NCBI GenBank assembly: GCA_049599475.1
Contig: JBMYOQ010000033.1
Coordinates: forward strand, 1-44,661
Direction of reading: 5' to 3'
Origin: Opitutales bacterium
GTDB taxonomy: Bacteria; Verrucomicrobiota; Verrucomicrobiia; Opitutales; JABSRG01
DNA length: 44,661 nt
Below, one piece after another: positions 1 through 6,733 of the stretch. Below the pieces are notes generated by a model. That model was not told the DNA's origin. It ran no database searches and saw nothing but the letters and a program-made list of their open reading frames with translations. Position 1 is the stretch's first letter, and each line of letters opens with the position of its first letter. A program made the translations under genes and the position numbers.

Positions 1-73
1 CATTCTCGCAAGGGCTCAAAAAGCTGGTTTCTCATAGGGGCATATCCTACAAGCGTCGGGGCGTATTCAAATT

Positions 74-700
74 GTGGGTGATGCTTTAGATGATTCCTAC
101 ACACGGTTCTCCGCCTTCGATCAAGAGGGAACTGTAGACATATCACCTGATAGGATTGTGCCGTCCATCGGTTTCGAAAATGGGCTCACAGATTGGAGTC
201 AAGGTGTCCTTAAGGTTGAGGACTTTTATCGAGGCTGTTTGCATAACTCCTTCGATAATGTTTTTATCGTTGGTTTTGCGCGTCCGATCATTGGAAACAT
301 TCCTTCGATATCTGAAATGCAGGCAAAGTATGTCTCACGTCTAATTTCGGGAAAAATACCAAGGTCTGGAAACATTGATGCGCTTTGGCAAGACGAGCGG
401 CAAGCCCTCGCTGAACAATTCCCAAATTTACCGATCGAAAAAGTATACCCAGTCGAAATGTTTGCGTATTGTGATGTTCTTGCTCGGGACCTGGATACTT
501 ACCCCAAGTTTTCTCTGCCGCACGAATGGCGGGAGTGGGTGAATTTCTATACTCAGCCGGCAGTCACCCTTCAATATTCTGAATCACGTGTGAACAAGCG
601 CGTGTTTATGCCTAAAGTCCTCGTTGTGTTACTGTTTCTGATACGATCTTTTGATGGGGTAATTTCTTGCTTAAGTGGGTTCAAGAAGTCTCGACCCTAA
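74..700 (+). CDS. C-terminal part of a flavin-containing monooxygenase (FMO-like); possibly truncated or frameshifted
   Basis: FIVGFARPIIGNIPSISEMQAKYVSRLISGK resembles FMO C-terminal region; same frame has TAG at 35-37 so N-terminal FAD-binding half is not in frame. Confidence 0.55.
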   Translation: MGDALDDSYTRFSAFDQEGTVDISPDRIVPSIGFENGLTDWSQGVLKVEDFYRGCLHNSFDNVFIVGFARPIIGNIPSISEMQAKYVSRLISGKIPRSGNIDALWQDERQALAEQFPNLPIEKVYPVEMFAYCDVLARDLDTYPKFSLPHEWREWVNFYTQPAVTLQYSESRVNKRVFMPKVLVVLLFLIRSFDGVISCLSGFKKSRP

Positions 701-1022
701 AAAGGTAGCTAAGGCTTGGTTGCCCTGTCCATTTCAGGGAACGCCGCAATCAGCCCTCTGAGTCTGTCCTTCGGATGTATGAAAATCGAAGTTTGCGGCG
801 TTCCAGCATCAGTCAGGCATCCCGATGCCATCCTGATGCTGCGCCTTGCGCTGCTTCGATTTTCATTACACCTATTTGATCAATATTTTCGGGATTCGGT
901 ATGATATGGCGCGGTAAGTGCGTAGCCTGAGGCATAATGAATGTTGATGCTGTTTGGCTGGGAGGGTAGTCGGAATAAAAGTTTAAATTATGCTTGTAAT
1001 AGTATAAATGTACACTACAAAT

Positions 1023-1094
1023 ATGACGATTATGAAATTCCACGCACAGCGAGATCAACATGAACCGAATACAATCGGAGGGTTCGCTATGTAG
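1023..1094 (+). CDS. Leader peptide 1, MTIMKFHAQRDQHEPNTIGGFAM (alternative start 1032)
   Basis: Hand-translated; His/Gln/Arg/Asp/Glu/Pro block matches six downstream tRNAs; 3' end overlaps antiterminator arm. Confidence 0.8.
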   Translation: MTIMKFHAQRDQHEPNTIGGFAM

Positions 1095-1131
1095 TGGTAT
1101 TAAGCACGCTTTATCGCTATATAGAGCCCTC
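1078..1131 (+). promoter_or_regulatory. Antiterminator hairpin of attenuator 1
   Basis: GAGGGTTC/GAGCCCTC plus TATGTAGTGGTA/TATCGCTATATA; sequesters 5' arm of the terminator. Confidence 0.75.
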
Positions 1132-1155
1132 AGAGTAATGTCTGGGGGCTTTTTT
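1123..1155 (+). terminator. Intrinsic terminator of attenuator 1
   Basis: AGAGCCCTCAGA-GTAATG-TCTGGGGGCTTT followed by T run, 12 nt before tRNA-Pro. Confidence 0.85.
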
Positions 1156-1167
1156 GGCGTTTACATA

Positions 1168-1239
1168 CAGGGATTGGCAGACAAGTGATGCACTCCGTTT
1201 GGGGCGGAGACTAAGGGGGAGCGTTACCCTCATTCCTGA
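1168..1239 (+). tRNA. tRNA-Pro(TGG), atypical T-loop AGCGTTA, no complete encoded CCA
   Basis: Acceptor CAGGGAT/ATTCCTG; anticodon arm CTCCG-TTTGGGG-CGGAG. Confidence 0.8.
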
Positions 1240-1242
1240 CAT

Positions 1243-1317
1243 CCCTCATTAGTGAACTGGCTATCATACCGCTCTGTCGAAGCGGAGTAGCGGGGTCGGT
1301 ACCCGCATGGGGGGCCA
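1243..1317 (+). tRNA. tRNA-Asp(GTC), atypical T-loop GTCGGTA
   Basis: CCCTCAT/ATGGGGG, G73, CCA; CCGCT-CTGTCGA-AGCGG. Confidence 0.85.
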
Positions 1318-1326
1318 CTTTAACAA

Positions 1327-1401
1327 GGCGCTATAGTGTAACGGATAGCACAGGAGGTTTTCAGTCTTCTAGTCGGGGTTCGAGTCCCCGTAGCGTCACC
1401 A
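1327..1401 (+). tRNA. tRNA-Glu(TTC)
   Basis: GGCGCTA/TAGCGTC; GGAGG-TTTTCAG-TCTTC; TTCGAGT loop; CCA. Confidence 0.9.
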
Positions 1402-1402
1402 T

Positions 1403-1520
1403 GCGAGTATAGTGTAATGGAAGCACGTCTGAATACGAATCAGTTAGTTAAGGTGATCCGGTTGCCCGTAGTGCCCCGGTCATGTCGCTTTGCTCGGAAC
1501 GAGTCCTTATATTCGCACCA
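1403..1520 (+). tRNA. tRNA-Arg(ACG) with 45-nt insertion in T-loop
   Basis: GCGAGTA/TATTCGC; CTGA-ATACGAA-TCAG; T-stem TAAGG/CCTTA flanks insertion; CCA. Confidence 0.8.
1455..1499 (+). repeat. T-loop insertion element copy 1 (45 nt)
   Basis: GATCCGGTT-GCCCGTAGTGC-CCCGGTCATGTC-GCTTTGC-TCGGAA; homologous to 2164-2208 and 3920-3964. Confidence 0.9.
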
Positions 1521-1536
1521 TTTTTGTAATACAGAA

Positions 1537-1610
1537 TGCCATGTAGTTTAACGGTAAAACATCGGGCTTTGAACCCGAGCTTGGAGGTTCGATCCCTTCC
1601 GTGGCATCCA
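1537..1610 (+). tRNA. tRNA-Gln(TTG)
   Basis: TGCCATG/CGTGGCA; TCGGG-CTTTGAA-CCCGA; CCA. Confidence 0.9.
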
Positions 1611-1611
1611 T

Positions 1612-1688
1612 GCGTCGACTAGCTTAACAGGCCAAAGTACCGGATTGTGACTCCGGGGATCCGAGTTCGAGTCTCGGGCGGCGAACCA
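1612..1688 (+). tRNA. tRNA-His(GTG), irregular acceptor stem
   Basis: CCGGA-TTGTGAC-TCCGG; T-arm CCGAG-TTCGAGT-CTCGG; acceptor pairs only with a bulge; CCA. Confidence 0.75.
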
Positions 1689-1753
1689 TTTAATTTCGAT
1701 AAAATAACAAAACAGACTGGACAACATAAGTAATATCTATAGTAATACAAACC

Positions 1754-1801
1754 ATGGAAAGAAATTTTACAGCAATGATTAAAGGAGATGCCACCACATA
1801 G
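1754..1801 (+). CDS. Leader peptide 2, MERNFTAMIKGDATT
   Basis: Hand-translated; NFTAMIKG block matches cluster-2 tRNAs; stop codon abuts antiterminator arm. Confidence 0.8.
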   Translation: MERNFTAMIKGDATT

Positions 1802-1802
1802 G

Positions 1803-1851
1803 GGGAGCCCGGTTGTCTGTATTCTTTTTTATACACTTTCGGAAGGCTCCC
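1803..1851 (+). promoter_or_regulatory. Antiterminator hairpin of attenuator 2
   Basis: GGGAGCC (1803-1809) pairs with GGCTCCC (1845-1851); inner TGTAT/ATACA. Confidence 0.7.
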
Positions 1852-1873
1852 AATTCATTTGGGGGCCTTTTTT
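1843..1873 (+). terminator. Intrinsic terminator of attenuator 2
   Basis: AAGGCTCCCAA-TTCAT-TTGGGGGCCTT-TTTT. Confidence 0.85.
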
Positions 1874-1884
1874 GTTCTTTAATA
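1873..1884 (+). promoter_or_regulatory. boxA-like element
   Basis: TGTTCTTTAATA resembles rrn boxA TGCTCTTTAACA. Confidence 0.5.
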
Positions 1885-1885
1885 T

Positions 1886-1958
1886 GGCGGGTAGGTCTGG
1901 TCGACCGAGTGAGTCTCATACGCTCATCAGCGCGGTTCAAATCCGCGACCTGCTTCCA
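1886..1958 (+). tRNA. tRNA-Met(CAT), probably elongator; short D-arm
   Basis: GGCGGGT/ACCTGCT; TGAGT-CTCATAC-GCTCA; lacks the three G-C pairs of initiator tRNA; CCA. Confidence 0.75.
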
Positions 1959-1965
1959 GTTTAAT

Positions 1966-2104
1966 GGGGCAGATTAGATTCGATCCTTATCGGCAAGATA
2001 GGGAGACGACGGTGCGCGGAAGGAGCAGAGCGACTGTAGATGGGACGCCTTATAGTGGTCGCTCTGCGATGAGCTTTAGCTCACCATTCTCGCAGGCTCC
2101 ACCA
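1966..2104 (+). ncRNA. Ala-identity tRNA-like RNA resembling a tmRNA tRNA-like domain without mRNA domain
   Basis: GGGGC...GCTCC-A-CCA with G3:U70; GATTCGA motif in place of D-arm; stem TCCTTATC/GATAGGGA; no anticodon arm. Confidence 0.65.
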
Positions 2105-2109
2105 TTTTG

Positions 2110-2230
2110 TGAGGATTAGCTTAGTGGCTAAAGCGGGTGTCTTACAAACATCTGATCGCAGGTGGTCCGGTTACGCTTTGCGTCCCGGTCTTGTCGTTAC
2201 ATTCGGAACGAAGTCCTGCTTCCTCGACCA
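2110..2230 (+). tRNA. tRNA-Val(TAC) with 45-nt insertion in T-loop
   Basis: GGTGT-CTTACAA-ACATC; T-stem GCAGG/CCTGC flanks insertion; CCA. Confidence 0.8.
2164..2208 (+). repeat. T-loop insertion element copy 2 (45 nt)
   Basis: GGTCCGGTT-ACGCTTTGCGT-CCCGGTCTTGTC-GTTACAT-TCGGAA. Confidence 0.9.
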
Positions 2231-2231
2231 C

Positions 2232-2306
2232 TGGCGTGTAGCACAATGGCAGTGCAGCTCCCTGTTAAGGAGACGGTTACTGGTTCGAATCCAGTCATGC
2301 CAGCCA
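2232..2306 (+). tRNA. tRNA-Asn(GTT)
   Basis: TGGCGTG/CATGCCA, G73; CTCC-CTGTTAA-GGAG; CCA. Confidence 0.9.
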
Positions 2307-2311
2307 ATTTC

Positions 2312-2385
2312 CCTTTCGTAGCTCAATGGTAGAGCTAGTGGCTGATAACCGCTCGATCTAGGTTCAATTCCTGGCGAAAGGACCA
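2312..2385 (+). tRNA. tRNA-Ile(GAT)
   Basis: CCTTTCG/CGAAAGG; AGTGG-CTGATAA-CCGCT; CCA. Confidence 0.9.
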
Positions 2386-2390
2386 TTTCA

Positions 2391-2466
2391 GGTAACTGCG
2401 TAGGTCTAGTGATTACGCTCGGTTGAAGCCCGAGAGAACTTGGTGCAATCCCAAGAGTTGCCACCA
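2391..2466 (+). tRNA. tRNA-Phe(GAA), atypical T-loop TGCAATC
   Basis: GGTAACT/AGTTGCC; CTCGG-TTGAAGC-CCGAG; CCA. Confidence 0.85.
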
Positions 2467-2472
2467 TTTGTT

Positions 2473-2547
2473 GGGTGCTTCGTATAACGGCTATTACACC
2501 CGGTTTTTACCCGGATTATTGGGGTTCGATTCCCTAAGCGCCCACCA
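2473..2547 (+). tRNA. tRNA-Lys(TTT)
   Basis: GGGTGCT/AGCGCCC; CCGG-TTTTTAC-CCGG; CCA. Confidence 0.9.
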
Positions 2548-2551
2548 TTTC

Positions 2552-2627
2552 GCGAGAGTAGCTCAATTGGCAGAGCGCCTTCCTTCCAAGTAGGTGGTTG
2601 CGGGTTCGATTCCCGTCTCTCGTTCCA
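2552..2627 (+). tRNA. tRNA-Gly(TCC)
   Basis: GCGAGAG/CTCTCGT, U73; loop CTTCCAA; CCA. Confidence 0.9.
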
Positions 2628-2628
2628 T

Positions 2629-2704
2629 TCTCCCATTGTTCTAATTGGCAAAACGGCTGTCTTGTAAACAGCTTTTCTTGGTTCGAATCCGAGTGGGAGA
2701 TCCA
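2629..2704 (+). tRNA. tRNA-Thr(TGT)
   Basis: TCTCCCA/TGGGAGA; GCTGT-CTTGTAA-ACAGC; CCA. Confidence 0.9.
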
Positions 2705-2733
2705 GTTTACAGGAGGGGTAGTTTCGATTGTTT

Positions 2734-3609
2734 CTAGTTGAGAAACAAATCAAAAGAAGGAGGCAAATACTGATGAAGATTTTTTTTGTTACTATTGTAA
2801 GACTTCGGGTTGAAAGTTTGCTTCGGAAACGAGTTCCGAAGAATATTAACTATTTTGCCGGCCATGATAGCTGAGGCATCACTCCGAGCGTAAATGATGG
2901 ATCCATCTTCCCAATTACTTTGCCCGATCTTGTTCAATTTGACATCACTCCCGTGTTTAGCCAGCACCTCTTGAATTTCATGCGCTAACTTCTCTTTTCC
3001 TTTTGAATAAGATATTCTAACTTTCGACTTGGTTAGTTCGGGAGTTGGCGTGACAGATTTGAAAGGAGTAACGGTGTCACTCTTGTTAGATGCTATCCGA
3101 ATAGTTACGGTTTCAGACCTGCCGCTATAGGGACTACTACTAAAAACCCCAAAAGAAGTTTCTATTGGGACGTAGTTCGAGCTTTCAGGCGATCCAGTAT
3201 AATCAAATTTACCTTTAGGATTAACGAGAAAAGATCTCATGCGCTTCCCTTGCACATTTGAAACTGGCGAGGTGTATTTCACGTAGCCACCTCTCTTATG
3301 GAATGCTATATATAATTCGTCTGCTCCGTGAATAGTGGTCACGTAGGTAGAGAGCAATGCTCCAGGATCGAGCTTATACCACCCGCTCACAACTGGATCT
3401 CCAAACCCCACTCCAAAGCTATTTTTGAAGTTTTTTCCGAACATTCCCTTATACTCTAAATCGACGAGGGCGTAATAAACAGTTTCGTTCCCGGAATTTG
3501 TGATTCTAACCGTGATTTCACTTTCTGCGAAGATACTTGCAGACGATATTGCGAAAGTCGCAATAAACCATTTTAATGATCTGTGCATTAAAACATCCAA
3601 GCACATCAT
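2734..3609 (-). CDS. Secreted hypothetical protein (DUF1036-like N-terminus, possible LytR_C-like C-terminus)
   Basis: 291-aa ORF, signal-peptide-like N-terminus, SGWYKLDPG motif; domain calls by eye only. Confidence 0.65.
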   Translation of the reverse strand: MMCLDVLMHRSLKWFIATFAISSASIFAESEITVRITNSGNETVYYALVDLEYKGMFGKNFKNSFGVGFGDPVVSGWYKLDPGALLSTYVTTIHGADELYIAFHKRGGYVKYTSPVSNVQGKRMRSFLVNPKGKFDYTGSPESSNYVPIETSFGVFSSSPYSGRSETVTIRIASNKSDTVTPFKSVTPTPELTKSKVRISYSKGKEKLAHEIQEVLAKHGSDVKLNKIGQSNWEDGSIIYARSDASAIMAGKIVNILRNSFPKQTFNPKSYNSNKKNLHQYLPPSFDLFLN

Positions 3610-3653
3610 AAGCCTATACTGTGAAAAAAGGAATCGGCCTTACAAAAAATCGG

Positions 3654-3685
3654 TTGACACAACATCGCCTAACGGTGATTCTAAT
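3654..3685 (+). promoter_or_regulatory. Putative sigma70-type promoter for tRNA cluster 3
   Basis: Perfect TTGACA at 3654-3659; weak -10 candidates GATTCT (17 bp spacer) or TCTAAT just before leader ATG 3691. Confidence 0.5.
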
Positions 3686-3690
3686 CAATA

Positions 3691-3765
3691 ATGAATTATT
3701 TATGCATACTCCTCAGTTGGTCGCTGTCCGCATGGCGGAAGGCTAGCTCGATTGTGCATATGTAG
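3691..3765 (+). CDS. Leader peptide 3, MNYLCILLSWSLSAWRKASSIVHM
   Basis: Codons TAT TTA TGC ATA CTC CTC AGT TGG TCG CTG TCC correspond to all eight cluster-3 tRNAs. Confidence 0.85.
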   Translation: MNYLCILLSWSLSAWRKASSIVHM

Positions 3766-3798
3766 TTCCTGCATATATACACTTTCTGATTAGCCTTC
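3738..3798 (+). promoter_or_regulatory. Antiterminator hairpin of attenuator 3
   Basis: GAAGGCTAG/TTAGCCTTC plus GTGCATATGTAG/CTGCATATATAC. Confidence 0.75.
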
Positions 3799-3821
3799 GG
3801 TCGCAAGCCGAGGGCTTTTTT
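3792..3821 (+). terminator. Intrinsic terminator of attenuator 3
   Basis: AGCCTTCGGT-CGCAA-GCCGAGGGCT-TTTTT. Confidence 0.85.
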
Positions 3822-3833
3822 GTGTCCTAATTT

Positions 3834-3845
3834 TGTTCTTACATA
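3834..3845 (+). promoter_or_regulatory. boxA-like element
   Basis: TGTTCTTACATA, same position relative to the first tRNA as 1873-1884. Confidence 0.4.
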
Positions 3846-3846
3846 T

Positions 3847-3985
3847 GGAGGGTTGACCCGAGATCCGGCCTGGCGGGAGCCGTCTTGAAAACGGTTGGGG
3901 TTTAACAGCCTCTATGGGTGGTCCGGTTGGGCTTCGCACCCCGGTCATGTCGCTTCGCTCGGAACGAGACCCATACCCTCTACCA
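3847..3985 (+). tRNA. tRNA-Ser(TGA) with 45-nt insertion in T-loop
   Basis: GGAGGGT/ACCCTCT; GCCGT-CTTGAAA-ACGGT; long variable arm; T-stem ATGGG/CCCAT flanks insertion; CCA. Confidence 0.8.
3920..3964 (+). repeat. T-loop insertion element copy 3 (45 nt)
   Basis: GGTCCGGTT-GGGCTTCGCAC-CCCGGTCATGTC-GCTTCGC-TCGGAA. Confidence 0.9.
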
Positions 3986-3996
3986 TTTTATATATT

Positions 3997-4071
3997 ATCT
4001 CAGTGTTGTAATGGCTGCATATCGGTCTCCAAAACCGTATGGTCTAGGTTCAAGTCCTAGCTGAGATGCCA
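3997..4071 (+). tRNA. tRNA-Trp(CCA)
   Basis: ATCTCAG/CTGAGAT, G73; CGGT-CTCCAAA-ACCG; CCA. Confidence 0.9.
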
Positions 4072-4078
4072 TTTATGT

Positions 4079-4155
4079 GGACGTGTATCCCAATCGGAAG
4101 AGGAGTCTGTCTTAGAAACAGAATGTTGGGGGTTCGAATCCCTCCACGTCTACCA
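4079..4155 (+). tRNA. tRNA-Leu(TAG), short variable loop
   Basis: GGACGTG/CACGTCT; TCTGT-CTTAGAA-ACAGA; variable loop ATGTT; CCA. Confidence 0.85.
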
Positions 4156-4156
4156 T

Positions 4157-4231
4157 GGATCGATAGTGAAATCGGCATCACGCTCGGCTGTAACCCGACA
4201 ATTCCAGGTTCAAGTCCTGGTCGATCCACCA
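4157..4231 (+). tRNA. tRNA-Tyr(GTA), short variable loop
   Basis: GGATCGA/TCGATCC; TCGG-CTGTAAC-CCGA; CCA. Confidence 0.85.
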
Positions 4232-4235
4232 TTTT

Positions 4236-4309
4236 TACTGCGTGGCCGAGAGGCAAGGCAGGGGTCTGCAAAACCCCCTACGCGGGTTCGATTCCCGCCG
4301 CAGTATCCA
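4236..4309 (+). tRNA. tRNA-Cys(GCA)
   Basis: TACTGCG/CGCAGTA, U73; GGGGT-CTGCAAA-ACCCC; CCA. Confidence 0.9.
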
Positions 4310-4311
4310 TT

Positions 4312-4448
4312 TTGAATTCGATGTGTAGTCACCTGCTTTAGCTCGGTGAGATAAAAATTCGTATAATACGAATTTCTTGTTTGGTGGGCGCTTTGCCTTC
4401 TCGCGCGGTCAGGGTTCCGAGCCGTTACAAGAAATACACGCGAAACAA
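4312..4448 (+). ncRNA. Putative structured ncRNA of unknown class within tRNA cluster 3
   Basis: Closing stem 4317-4327/4435-4444, several internal stems; far longer than other inter-tRNA spacers (at most ~16 nt). Confidence 0.5.
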
Positions 4449-4467
4449 TTGCAGTGAAAAGATTTCA

Positions 4468-4544
4468 GGATGTGTAGGCTAATCGGTAAAGCCAGCCAGT
4501 TTAAGCCTGGCTGATTGCCCGTTCGAGTCGGGCCACATCCACCA
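4468..4544 (+). tRNA. tRNA-Leu(TAA), short variable loop
   Basis: GGATGTG/CACATCC; GCCAG-TTTAAGC-CTGGC; variable loop TGATT; CCA. Confidence 0.85.
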
Positions 4545-4545
4545 G

Positions 4546-4638
4546 GGAGAGTAGGGCCTGCTGTGGTAGCGGACGGGGATTGCTAATCCTTCGCTGGTCT
4601 TCAAAAGCCAGTCGGTTCGACTCCGATACTCTCTTCCA
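4546..4638 (+). tRNA. tRNA-Ser(GCT)
   Basis: GGAGAGT/ACTCTCT; GGGGA-TTGCTAA-TCCTT; long variable arm; CCA. Confidence 0.85.
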
Positions 4639-4648
4639 TTTAATAGAG

Positions 4649-4723
4649 GGACCTGTAGCTTATTGGTAAAAGCGGGGCGCTCATAACGCCCGGAACTGAG
4701 TTCGATTCCCAGCGGGTCTACCA
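4649..4723 (+). tRNA. tRNA(CAT), probably Ile2 (lysidine-modified)
   Basis: GGACCTG/CGGGTCT; GGGCG-CTCATAA-CGCCC; Ile2 identity inferred from ATA codon in leader 3. Confidence 0.75.
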
Positions 4724-4875
4724 ATTTTTAAATTTTCTTCGCGCATCAGGTCCGGTGAACTGTTTATAGATTGAATAAGCCCAACCCGTTTTAATGTATA
4801 TATGGGTTTTTGAGGTATTTTTGTAACAAATTATATCCTAACAAAATATGTCTAATATACATCTTTCGCGGGGAG

Positions 4876-4941
4876 CTAGACGGTTTCTCGAAAGTGTGGG
4901 TTTACCTGAATAAACGAAAACACTTTTGAAAAACCGCCTAG
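4876..4941. repeat. Imperfect 22-bp inverted repeat
   Basis: CTAGACGGTTTCTCGAAAGTGT ... ACACTTTTGAAAAACCGCCTAG. Confidence 0.6.
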
Positions 4942-5066
4942 AATCGAAACCACAGGATCACTAGGCAAGTGGTTTTAAGCTTTTTCATGATCCCCTAATA
5001 AACGAAAACAATTGAGCGGTAACGTATGAGAGTTTCTATAGCCTCTAGGAATGTAGTGCTATTAAA

Positions 5067-5972
5067 TTACAAAAGCGTAGCGAGGTCTTTTGCATTGGGT
5101 AGTGCTGTGCGGGCGCCTGGTTTGGTCACGGTGAGTGCGCCGGCGGCGGAAGCGTAGACGCAGGCTTCTTCGAGGGCATGCTTTCTTGATAGCGCTAGAG
5201 CGAGTGCTCCGTGGAATGCATCGCCTGCGCCATTGCTGTCGATTGTTTTTACGGGAAATGCTCTCAGATGTTTGGGGGCAGAATTATCCTCTGAGTAAAT
5301 AAGGCCATATTCTCCGAAGGTAACGATGCAGGCTTTGCCACGGTGGAGAGCCTGTATTTTTGCGAATATGGTATTGGGCTCGGTTTCACCAGTTACCTGG
5401 CGGGCAAATTTTTCGGATGCCGCAAGGATTTCGATATCTTTCCAGATCGCGCGCGTTCCTGCATGGAGGGATCCGGCATCGAGGATCGCGGGAATCTCTA
5501 AATTTTTGGCTTCATCTACGAGCACACTGCTGAGTTCCGATTCGTGCCCGTCTAGCAGGAGCACTTTGGGGTGAGTTTCAGCCAGGGTAACGGATTGAGC
5601 TGGAACAGGTCGTGATGGGGGAGGGGCTATAACCGTGCGGCTTCCGTCGGGTTTTACCAGCACGGTGGCGACAGGGGAGGGTTCATGAGTCCAGCAGAGA
5701 CCGGCGGTATTTACTCCATTGCTGCGAAGATCTTGGGCAATCAATTCCCCCATGCCGTCGTTGCCGACGCGACCCGCGAACATCGCGGATCCCCCGAGGC
5801 GGACAACTTGGACGGCTGCATTGCTGGCAGGGCCCCCACCGCAGCCATTTAGGCCACTGGCGCGTATTTTTTCGTCGGTTTCAGGGTGGGTGGAAACCGT
5901 GTAGTTGAGATCCCAAACCGCTAAACCGACGCATAGCACGTCGGGCCGTTCCTTTGTGGGCTCCTCGCTCAC
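5067..5972 (-). CDS. PfkB/ribokinase-family carbohydrate kinase
   Basis: GGGPASNAA and DSNGAGDAF signatures; start reassigned to GTG overlapping hisF stop (GTGA). Confidence 0.9.
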
Positions 5973-6733
5973 AGGCGCACGGGGATGCCGTCTTTCTGGA
6001 GGTGAGCCTTGGTCTCGGGAATCGTGAACTCCCCGAAGTGGAAAATAGATGCTGCTAGGACTGCGCTGGCTTTTCCGTCGGTAAGCACCTCTGTCATGTG
6101 GTCGAGGGTCCCGGCGCCTCCAGAGGCGATGACGGGCACTTCGACCGCTTCGCTGATAGCGCGCGTAAGCGGGACGTCGTAGCCCGCCTTGGTGCCATCG
6201 GCGTCCATGCTGGTTAATAGAATTTCTCCAGCTCCCAATTCGACCGCCGTTTTGGCCCATTCGATCGCATCGAGCTCGGTGGGATTGCGGCCACCGTGGG
6301 TGAACACACCCCAGCCGTTGGGTTTGGACGGGTCCTTCTTCGCATCGATGGCGACGACGATGCATTGATTCCCATACTTCTCGGATGCGTCCTTAATGAG
6401 CTGCGGATTCTTGATTGCAGCGGTGTTCAGACTCACTTTATCCGCCCCGCTGTTGAGCATTTTACGAATATCGTCCAGGGTGCGAATGCCGCCTCCCACG
6501 GTCAGGGGCATGAAGCAAGATGCAGCTGTTCGCTCTACGACCTCGTGCATCGTCGCGCGATCGTCGGATGAGGCGGTGATGTCTAGAAACACTAATTCAT
6601 CTGCGCCTTGTTCTTGGTATGCCTTCGCGCAGTCGACCGGATCTCCGGCGTCGCGGAGTTCCTGGAATTTAACGCCTTTGACGACACGACCGTCGGTGAC
6701 GTCGAGACAGGGAATGATGCGTGAGGAAAGCAT
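5969..6733 (-). CDS. hisF: Imidazole glycerol phosphate synthase cyclase subunit
   Basis: [39 protein letters not shown]. Confidence 0.97.

Follow-up and report, generated by a model that had tools for sequence, protein, structure and literature searches.

How might a bacterium keep a foreign, spare set of transfer RNA (tRNA) genes silent and still be able to call on it? The question is raised by a contig of 44,661 nucleotides (nt) from an Opitutales bacterium of the Verrucomicrobiota (assembly GCA_049599475.1, contig JBMYOQ010000033.1, positions 1 to 44,661 of the forward strand). We refer to this whole stretch as the window; it is contig C33, in our numbering, of a 4.68-Mb, 146-contig genome. 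Positions 1168-4723 of its forward strand hold 22 tRNA-like genes and one gene resembling transfer-messenger RNA (tmRNA), arranged over 3,556 nt in three same-strand clusters. We consider it fairly probable that this is a horizontally acquired, supernumerary tRNA array whose three clusters are gated by paralogous leader-peptide transcription attenuators. On this reading, production of the spare tRNAs is probably confined to times when the codons matched to them are read slowly.

An L-array, as defined in the available portion of PMC4758250, is a set of at least 20 tRNA genes at a density of at least two per kb, and the array in the window has both that number and that density. Seventeen of its 22 tRNA-like genes are called by ARAGORN at default settings, and these 17 are canonical and encode CCA. 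Two more, Pro(TGG) at 1168-1240 and Phe(GAA) at 2391-2466, are gained with relaxed thresholds. Arg(ACG) and Val(TAC) become callable only once a 45-nt insert in the T-loop is removed in silico, while Ser(TGA) at 3846-3985 is a by-eye reading called by no program. The tRNA with anticodon CAT at 4649 is taken throughout as Ile2, which is an assumption. Because the genome carries 36 other, dispersed tRNAs and the array tRNAs are only 54-74% identical to the host isoacceptors, we class the array, on sequence grounds, as a supernumerary and foreign L-array in the sense used in the accessible text of PMC8421152. Its distribution is patchy: it was not found in six same-family genomes, the one of the same genus included, nor in the genomes sampled across the order and the phylum.

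The control of such an array can be sought in the spacers ahead of its clusters. Leader-peptide attenuators are known from amino-acid operons such as trp, his, leu and phe, and the multivalent leaders of thr and ilvGMEDA sense two or three amino acids. The three units of the window resemble the trp/his type, in which a short open reading frame (ORF) with regulatory codons is followed by an antiterminator and an overlapping intrinsic terminator, and the position of the ribosome selects the hairpin. An earlier reading of the sequence (the original prediction) had placed an ATG-started ORF of 15-24 codons and a terminator ahead of each of the three tRNA clusters, and all of these ORFs and stems could be located (Table 1). 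The ORFs have 23, 15 and 24 codons. That of leader 2 is the sole ORF of at least five codons in its spacer, and leader 1 might instead begin at an in-frame ATG at 1008, which would make it five codons longer, 28 in all. In all three units a predicted intrinsic terminator ends 8-24 nt ahead of the first tRNA, so that any promoter must lie upstream of the terminator. A standard terminator scan of the window lists terminators 2 and 3 only; terminator 1 is missed because its stem can extend into the T tract. The geometry is uniform, with 88, 87 and 92 nt in units 1, 2 and 3 between the end of the codon block described below and the last T of the terminator. As a base rate only, we used 129 distinct viral tRNA clusters picked with a generic T-loop pattern, a sample too small to test generality; a terminator lies no more than 70 nt upstream in six of them, against three of three in the window with the same scanner.

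Units 2 and 3 have non-coding flanks in common: ahead of the terminator TATACACTTTC[G/T]GA, and behind it TTTTGTTCTT.A.ATATGG.GGGT, a 23-nt stretch located between the terminator and the first tRNA. Their ORFs are unrelated. The two units look like duplicates in which the coding part has diverged, each towards its own cluster.

Table 1. Positions in the window of the predicted control elements and of the tRNA clusters
Feature	Position	Strand	Description
Promoter-like A/T-rich stretch before leader 1	988-1022	+	TATAAA at 1003, TACACT at 1011, as read from the sequence
Leader ORF 1: MTIMKFHAQRDQHEPNTIGGFAM	1023-1094	+	23 codons and stop; block H-A-Q-R-D-Q-H-E-P at codons 7-15; sensing window 2-15
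Antiterminator 1	1078-1131	+	GAGGGTTC (1078-1085) pairs with GAGCCCTC (1124-1131); stacks on hairpin 1087-1124
Terminator 1	stem 1125-1150, T6 ending 1155	+	10-bp stem, -17.5 kcal/mol; ends 12 nt before tRNA-Pro
Cluster 1	1168-1688	+	Pro(TGG), Asp(GTC), Glu(TTC), Arg(ACG), Gln(TTG), His(GTG); T-loop insert in Arg at 1455-1499
Promoter-like TGGACA, 17 nt, AGTAAT	1718-1746	+	putative; ends 7 nt before leader-2 ATG
Leader ORF 2: MERNFTAMIKGDATT	1754-1801	+	15 codons and stop; block N-F-T-A-M-I-K-G at codons 4-11; sensing window 2-13
Antiterminator 2	1801-1851	+	GGGGGAGCC (1801-1809) pairs with GGCTCCC (1845-1851); from nascent-RNA folding
Terminator 2	stem 1841-1871, T6 ending 1873	+	12-13 bp stem, -19.9 kcal/mol; ends 12 nt before tRNA-Met
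Cluster 2 (position given for the whole cluster), first part	1886-2704	+	Met(CAT), tmRNA-like 'Ala-like' RNA (1966-2105), Val(TAC); insert in Val at 2164-2208
Cluster 2, remainder	within 1886-2704	+	Asn, Ile(GAT), Phe, Lys, Gly(TCC), Thr(TGT)
Promoter-like TTGACA, then GATTCT or TCTAAT	3654-3685	+	putative; ends 5-8 nt before leader-3 ATG
Leader ORF 3: MNYLCILLSWSLSAWRKASSIVHM	3691-3765	+	24 codons and stop; block Y-L-C-I-L-L-S-W-S-L-S at codons 3-13; sensing window 2-12 or 2-13
Antiterminator 3	3738-3798	+	GAAGGCTA (3738-3745) pairs with TAGCCTTC (3791-3798); extended helix
Terminator 3	stem 3792-3816, T6 ending 3821	+	10-bp stem, -16.1 kcal/mol; ends 24 nt before the Ser-like tRNA
Cluster 3	3846-4723	+	Ser(TGA)-like, Trp, Leu(TAG), Tyr, Cys, 158-nt spacer, Leu(TAA), Ser(GCT), tRNA(CAT); insert in Ser(TGA)-like gene at 3920-3964

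Each leader holds a contiguous block of codons for amino acids of its own cluster, as the original prediction had it. The score for this agreement adds, to the longest run of own-cluster residues, the cluster's amino-acid coverage within a short window. Neither 200,000 random amino-acid partitions nor 50,000 mononucleotide (composition-preserving) shuffles of the ORFs ever attained the observed match values of 26 and 20. Taken leader by leader, run-length P values from the shuffles are 0.003, 0.018 and 0.00006 for leaders 1, 2 and 3. Among the six ways of pairing leaders with clusters the true one scores 26, as against 21 or less for the other five. Inside the sensing windows (Table 1) 27 of the 37 codons are for own-cluster residues, compared with 6 of 22 elsewhere in the leaders (Fisher's test, P = 0.0007, or 0.003 if Ala is left out). 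With the 'Ala-like' gene set aside and the CAT tRNA at 4649 assumed to be Ile2, 21 of the 22 tRNAs, all but Val, find their amino acid in their own leader, and Ser, Leu, Trp, Tyr and Cys are absent from the translations of leaders 1 and 2; both features had been foreseen. The block of leader 3 covers all eight anticodon boxes of cluster 3 (TTA, CTC/CTG, AGT, TCG/TCC, ATA), a coverage that depends on the same reading of the CAT tRNA and has P = 0.06 given the peptide. On either side of its block, leader 1 carries amino acids of cluster 2 as well, six or seven of them; by way of conjecture, these codons would fit transcripts from the first promoter that continue towards cluster 2.

The position of the ribosome was treated in a nascent-RNA model, in which the RNA is folded up to the terminator loop together with a modelled ribosome. 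In each unit an antiterminator is predicted (Table 1), its 5' arm beginning 9-15 nt past the matched block. In the model, the terminator 5' arm keeps its upstream partner until the A site passes codon 15, 12-13 and 12 of leaders 1, 2 and 3, so that the antiterminator is free when the ribosome stands at the control codons and masked when it stands beyond them. The blocks themselves end at codons 15, 11 and 13. These masking limits shift by one codon in either direction for ribosome shields of +10 to +16 nt. With the ribosome stalled mid-block, antiterminators 1, 2 and 3 have energies of -11.7, -11.2 and -13.9 kcal/mol, compared with -4.8 +/- 2.4, -5.8 +/- 2.4 and -5.0 +/- 2.3 kcal/mol in dinucleotide shuffles, of which 4, 9 and 0 out of 400 reach the observed value. 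For free RNA, the antiterminator of leader 1 is equalled by 10 of 300 and 5 of 300 shuffles on two measures, and that of leader 3 by 10 of 300 on one of them. Leader 3 also switches at equilibrium: its terminator has a probability of 0.01-0.18 when any of codons 5-12 occupies the A site, and of at least 0.9 once codon 13 is reached. Its layout of 1:2, 2:3 and 3:4 pairings is that of the classical attenuators, the 1:2 hairpin, at 3693-3768, being formed by the leader-3 ORF. Since leader 3 alone switches at equilibrium, leaders 1 and 2 would need kinetic control. Attenuators act kinetically, and we therefore considered equilibrium folding too strict to serve as the only criterion.

A unit built in this way would work as follows. 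Transcription would start at or just before the ATG, and a ribosome would translate the short ORF while RNA polymerase nears the terminator. Where reading is fast, the ribosome would run past the block and cover the antiterminator 5' arm 9-15 nt downstream, and the terminator would form. A wait at any codon of the sensing window would leave that arm free to pair with the terminator 5' arm, and the polymerase would enter the tRNA genes; at leaders 1 and 2 the outcome would be under kinetic control. Because the codons of the sensing windows are mainly those of the own cluster, each unit would be an OR-gate over 7-12 amino acids, and because the new tRNAs restore fast reading, it would be a negative-feedback loop. 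The signal in vivo could be a shortage of charged tRNA that arises from tRNA damage, starvation or general translation stress; the triggers named in the original prediction, anticodon nucleases, toxins and phage defence, are speculation. Carried one step further, the array could be a portable, self-regulating tRNA homeostat. Three diverged, leaderless attenuator copies would each read the decoding speed of their own block, and loss of a single tRNA, for example to an anticodon nuclease, would re-supply that subset and then be followed by shut-off as soon as decoding is fast again. We put this last proposal forward tentatively, as a possibility slightly less likely than not.

Real attenuators need not depend on which codons they contain. 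The three units could sense general translation capacity, as lowered by antibiotics, ribosome damage or low elongation factor, with codon identity incidental and the array forming a stress regulon like the L-array of Anabaena. The nascent-RNA model does antiterminate wherever the ribosome stalls between codon 1 and about codon 12-15; leader 1 opens with cluster-2 residues, and leader 2 holds Glu, Arg and Asp. In Anabaena, according to the accessible text of PMC8421152, the L-array is induced when translation is impaired. We nevertheless find such a sensor unlikely, since it leaves unexplained the match of each block to its own cluster, which 0 of 200,000 partitions reproduced, as well as the absence of Ser, Leu, Trp, Tyr and Cys from leaders 1 and 2 and the presence of all eight cluster-3 anticodon boxes in leader 3.

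Codon-matched attenuation, the interpretation we prefer, requires that the leaders be transcribed and translated. Promoter-like stretches lie just upstream of all three (Table 1). Their -10-like hexamers end 5-8 nt ahead of each ATG (14 nt for the alternative TATAAA at leader 1), and on account of this spacing the transcripts may be leaderless, starting at the ATG or a few nt before it. None of the three leader ORFs has a Shine-Dalgarno (SD) sequence. This is normal for the genome, because SD-like 4-mers are not enriched before long ORFs: they precede 10.8% of the 2,278 long ORFs, compared with 14.2% inside ORFs. Translation initiation in the organism seems to be largely independent of the SD sequence. 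A repeat search over 1-5300, in which repressor sites were not searched for, found no motif repeated at the three promoter-like stretches; nor did it find direct repeats bounding the array as a whole. As a separate observation, an 18-nt near-perfect palindrome lies upstream of leader 1, at 804-841.

The public sequencing runs that hold this stretch are marine. Two RNA-seq libraries of one study contain letter-perfect contigs at 1488-1721, 2607-2965, 3838-4100 and 4102-4320, covering parts of all three clusters; carry-over of DNA is possible, and the support they lend is weak. No contig from these libraries lies over a leader or a terminator. In a second marine metagenome (X2) the pieces are identical to the array and hence show no variation. 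A relative with about 95-99% identity is present in an older marine metagenome (X5). The loop of its tRNA-Arg is a normal TTCGAGT, free of the insert; no X5 contig at 85% likeness or more falls on any leader. These gaps in coverage, in the RNA libraries and in X5, count neither for nor against any reading.

Several observations weigh against codon-matched attenuation. In leader 1 the residues of cluster 2 (14) outnumber those of cluster 1 (8), and a Val codon is missing from leaders 1 and 2. The leader codons are not biased to rare codons; codon choice is ordinary (mean relative synonymous codon usage 1.02, P = 0.10), and sensitisation by rare codons was rejected. A TTG-started frame of 13 codons at 3752-3793 is also rich in cluster-3 residues, which means that local T/C-rich composition adds to the match. 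As to structure, terminators 1 and 2 form at equilibrium whatever the position of the ribosome (P = 0.83-0.99), the free-RNA antiterminator of leader 2 is no better than shuffles (125/300 and 159/300), and that of leader 3 is equalled by 193 of 300 shuffles on the ensemble measure. A consensus promoter scan of the window found no promoter. Within the array, Arg, Val and Ser(TGA) are interrupted by the 45-nt insert in this strain, and the tRNA calls for Pro, Phe and Ser(TGA) are weak. The Ala codon GCA stands mid-block in two leaders of an array without an Ala decoder. None of the four viral clusters that have both a terminator and an ORF matches its own cluster (fractions 0.11-0.31, like the controls), and no homologous array with a leader was found in searches of genomes, phages, plasmids and metagenomes. 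The original prediction of codon-matched attenuation is supported in silico, then, in the attenuator anatomy of all three units and in the mutually exclusive pairings of the nascent-RNA model; it falls short in that the equilibrium switch is confined to leader 3, that there is no decoder for Ala and that three of the tRNAs are interrupted.

The homology searches covered the array in parts. Region 960-2710 against 40 relatives, region 3640-4760 against 400 genomes of the phylum and region 2232-2710 against 400 genomes of the order all matched only single housekeeping tRNAs or the 45-nt element. A 'distant' blastn search gave at best tRNA pairs, which accounted for 4% of the query among 50,697 phage records and for 2% among 72,556 plasmid records. 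A 20-mer from the array had three matches in JGI metagenome contigs; none of these contigs carries a tRNA, and we take the matches to be due to chance. Three array anchors had no match in viral contigs.

The missing Ala decoder concerns the 'Ala-like' gene of cluster 2, which is 140 nt long. It has a tmRNA-like 5' end and the 3' end GCTCCACCA, and its acceptor stem carries G3:U70 and A73, features of alanine identity. It has neither an anticodon arm nor a T-arm. The RNA folds stably (-56.7 kcal/mol, z = -3.5). It was rejected as a tRNA-Ala for want of an anticodon arm, having only the acceptor ends in common with the host tmRNA, a normal gene of 354 nt found elsewhere in the genome (C41). The 'Ala-like' gene is not a decoder. 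A stretch of 262 nt at 1968-2229, comprising this gene and tRNA-Val, is missing in the X5 relative, where Met stands directly before Asn. It is either an insertion in the lineage of the window or a deletion in that of the relative.

It might also be argued that there is no translational regulation at all, the terminators being ordinary or leaky ones or processing signals, and the ORFs untranslated chance frames that reflect base composition. Consistent with this are the promoter scan, the frame at 3752-3793 with its cluster-3 residues and the non-significant free-RNA measures for the leader-2 antiterminator. Composition-preserving shuffles do not, however, reproduce the match (0/50,000), and each terminator stands between the only plausible promoter and the tRNAs, 8-24 nt short of the latter, where a simple terminator would silence the cluster. 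In three of three units, moreover, the block ends where the modelled ribosome starts to mask the antiterminator, and the antiterminator formed with a stalled ribosome beats the shuffles. Chance frames are in our judgement unlikely.

The conserved 45-nt element that interrupts three of the tRNAs sits in each case in the T-loop. Its core is TG[GT]TCCGGT, a variable hairpin and CCGGTC[TA]TGTCGCT..GCTCGGAAC. We found it in 111 stretches of Opitutales-type genomes, with dozens of copies in one metagenome-assembled genome, and a further copy lies in the genome under study (C32:24865-24917). It is often found in the loop of a flanking stem, or just 3' of a housekeeping tRNA whose 3' end is duplicated next to it. 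Three of the seven pairs in the hairpin of the element show compensatory changes, and the element has no Rfam entry. It could be a new RNA motif, or else a small mobile element whose targets are hairpin loops. Of the 111 loci that carry it, 80 were inspected, and none of these contains a tRNA array. Its insertion into three tRNAs of the array suggests relaxed selection. That the attenuators worked in a donor, perhaps a phage or other mobile element, and that the array here is a decaying, cryptic relic, silent or irrelevant, would fit these recent insertions (not in the relative), the poor scores of several tRNAs and the failure to find the array in the six same-family genomes; with 17 tRNAs canonical and CCA-encoding, all three attenuators intact, identical copies in X2 and parts in the RNA libraries, we think it unlikely.

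Other features of the array and its surroundings deserve mention in their own right. The Leu genes of the array (4079-4155 and 4468-4544; 77 nt) and its Tyr gene (4157-4231; 75 nt) have no long variable arm; the host Leu (85-86 nt) and Tyr (86 nt) genes have one, as do both Ser genes of the array. The 158-nt spacer of cluster 3 (4310-4467) gave no tRNA call and no terminator, and its fold is ordinary (z = -1.1). Between cluster 2 and leader 3, on the reverse strand, lies an orphan ORF of 291 amino acids (2734-3609) with a signal-peptide-like N-terminus and a GC content of 41%, compared with 50.5% for the genome; it has no Pfam family and no relative among 5.8 billion proteins. A synteny search with the left flank returned a single homologue, 42% identical and without the neighbouring genes. 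Just 3' of the array a 17-nt direct repeat, AATAAACGAAAACA[C/A]TT, occurs twice, at 4909-4925 and 4997-5013. Elsewhere in the genome, at C86:9325-9545, three adjacent atypical tRNA-like genes with odd anticodon loops are labelled '???'(aa), Asn(att) and His(atg) by ARAGORN and have no evident upstream leader or terminator.

How the array, read as a set of codon-matched attenuators, relates to known systems can be stated briefly: the mechanism is classical, and what is new is the tRNA target and the multi-codon design. In contrast to the attenuators of amino-acid operons, the controlled genes here are tRNA genes, so that the sensed product is the decoder itself; the leaders contain single codons for 7-12 amino acids rather than runs for one to three; and the units probably have little or no 5' untranslated region and no Shine-Dalgarno sequence. 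The sole Rfam leader match is a sub-threshold one to Phe_leader at 1746-1875 (26.1 bits against a gathering threshold of 55, E = 0.39). The prevailing view places control of bacterial tRNA genes at the promoter, and we know of no described attenuator that links decoding speed to tRNA supply by an OR-gate over many codons. Our literature searches yielded no description of tRNA genes whose expression depends on translating the very codons they read, and no paper that combines 'tRNA array' with 'leader peptide'.

T-box riboswitches are similar in that they antiterminate upon a shortage of charged tRNA and control genes of the translation apparatus. They bind uncharged tRNA directly through a specifier codon, sense one tRNA and involve no ribosome. 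No match to a T-box family at E <= 1 was found in 1-6000. The leaderless polycysteine ORFs of mycobacteria offer another likeness, as short ORFs at the 5' end of a transcript, without an SD sequence, whose decoding speed sets downstream expression; in the part of bioRxiv 10.1101/834739 available, they sense one amino acid and stand before protein-coding operons, whereas leaderless initiation in the window is a reading of promoter-like spacing. The closest counterpart of the array as such is the trn operon L-array of Anabaena sp. PCC 7120, which, as described in the accessible text of PMC8421152, is likewise a dense group of some 20 or more same-strand, supernumerary foreign tRNA genes, proposed to stay off under normal conditions and to be induced by impaired translation. 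Control there, on the same partial source, acts at the promoter through repressor-bound direct repeats, as distinct from the three separately gated clusters with leader ORFs and terminators described here. The terms 'leader' and 'attenuat' do not occur in PMC8421152 or in PMC10272220.

If codon-matched attenuation holds, the array would provide direct feedback from decoding speed to tRNA supply by way of a many-codon OR-gate. The single locus comprises three natural variants, each of less than 200 nt and with predicted control codons, stems and termination points, and would supply compact parts for synthetic sensors of tRNA availability. It would bear on the biology of phages and of defence against them, as a case in which tRNA cleavage is answered by tRNA replacement. 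It would also offer a mechanism by which cryptic, acquired tRNA arrays may be kept silent yet callable.

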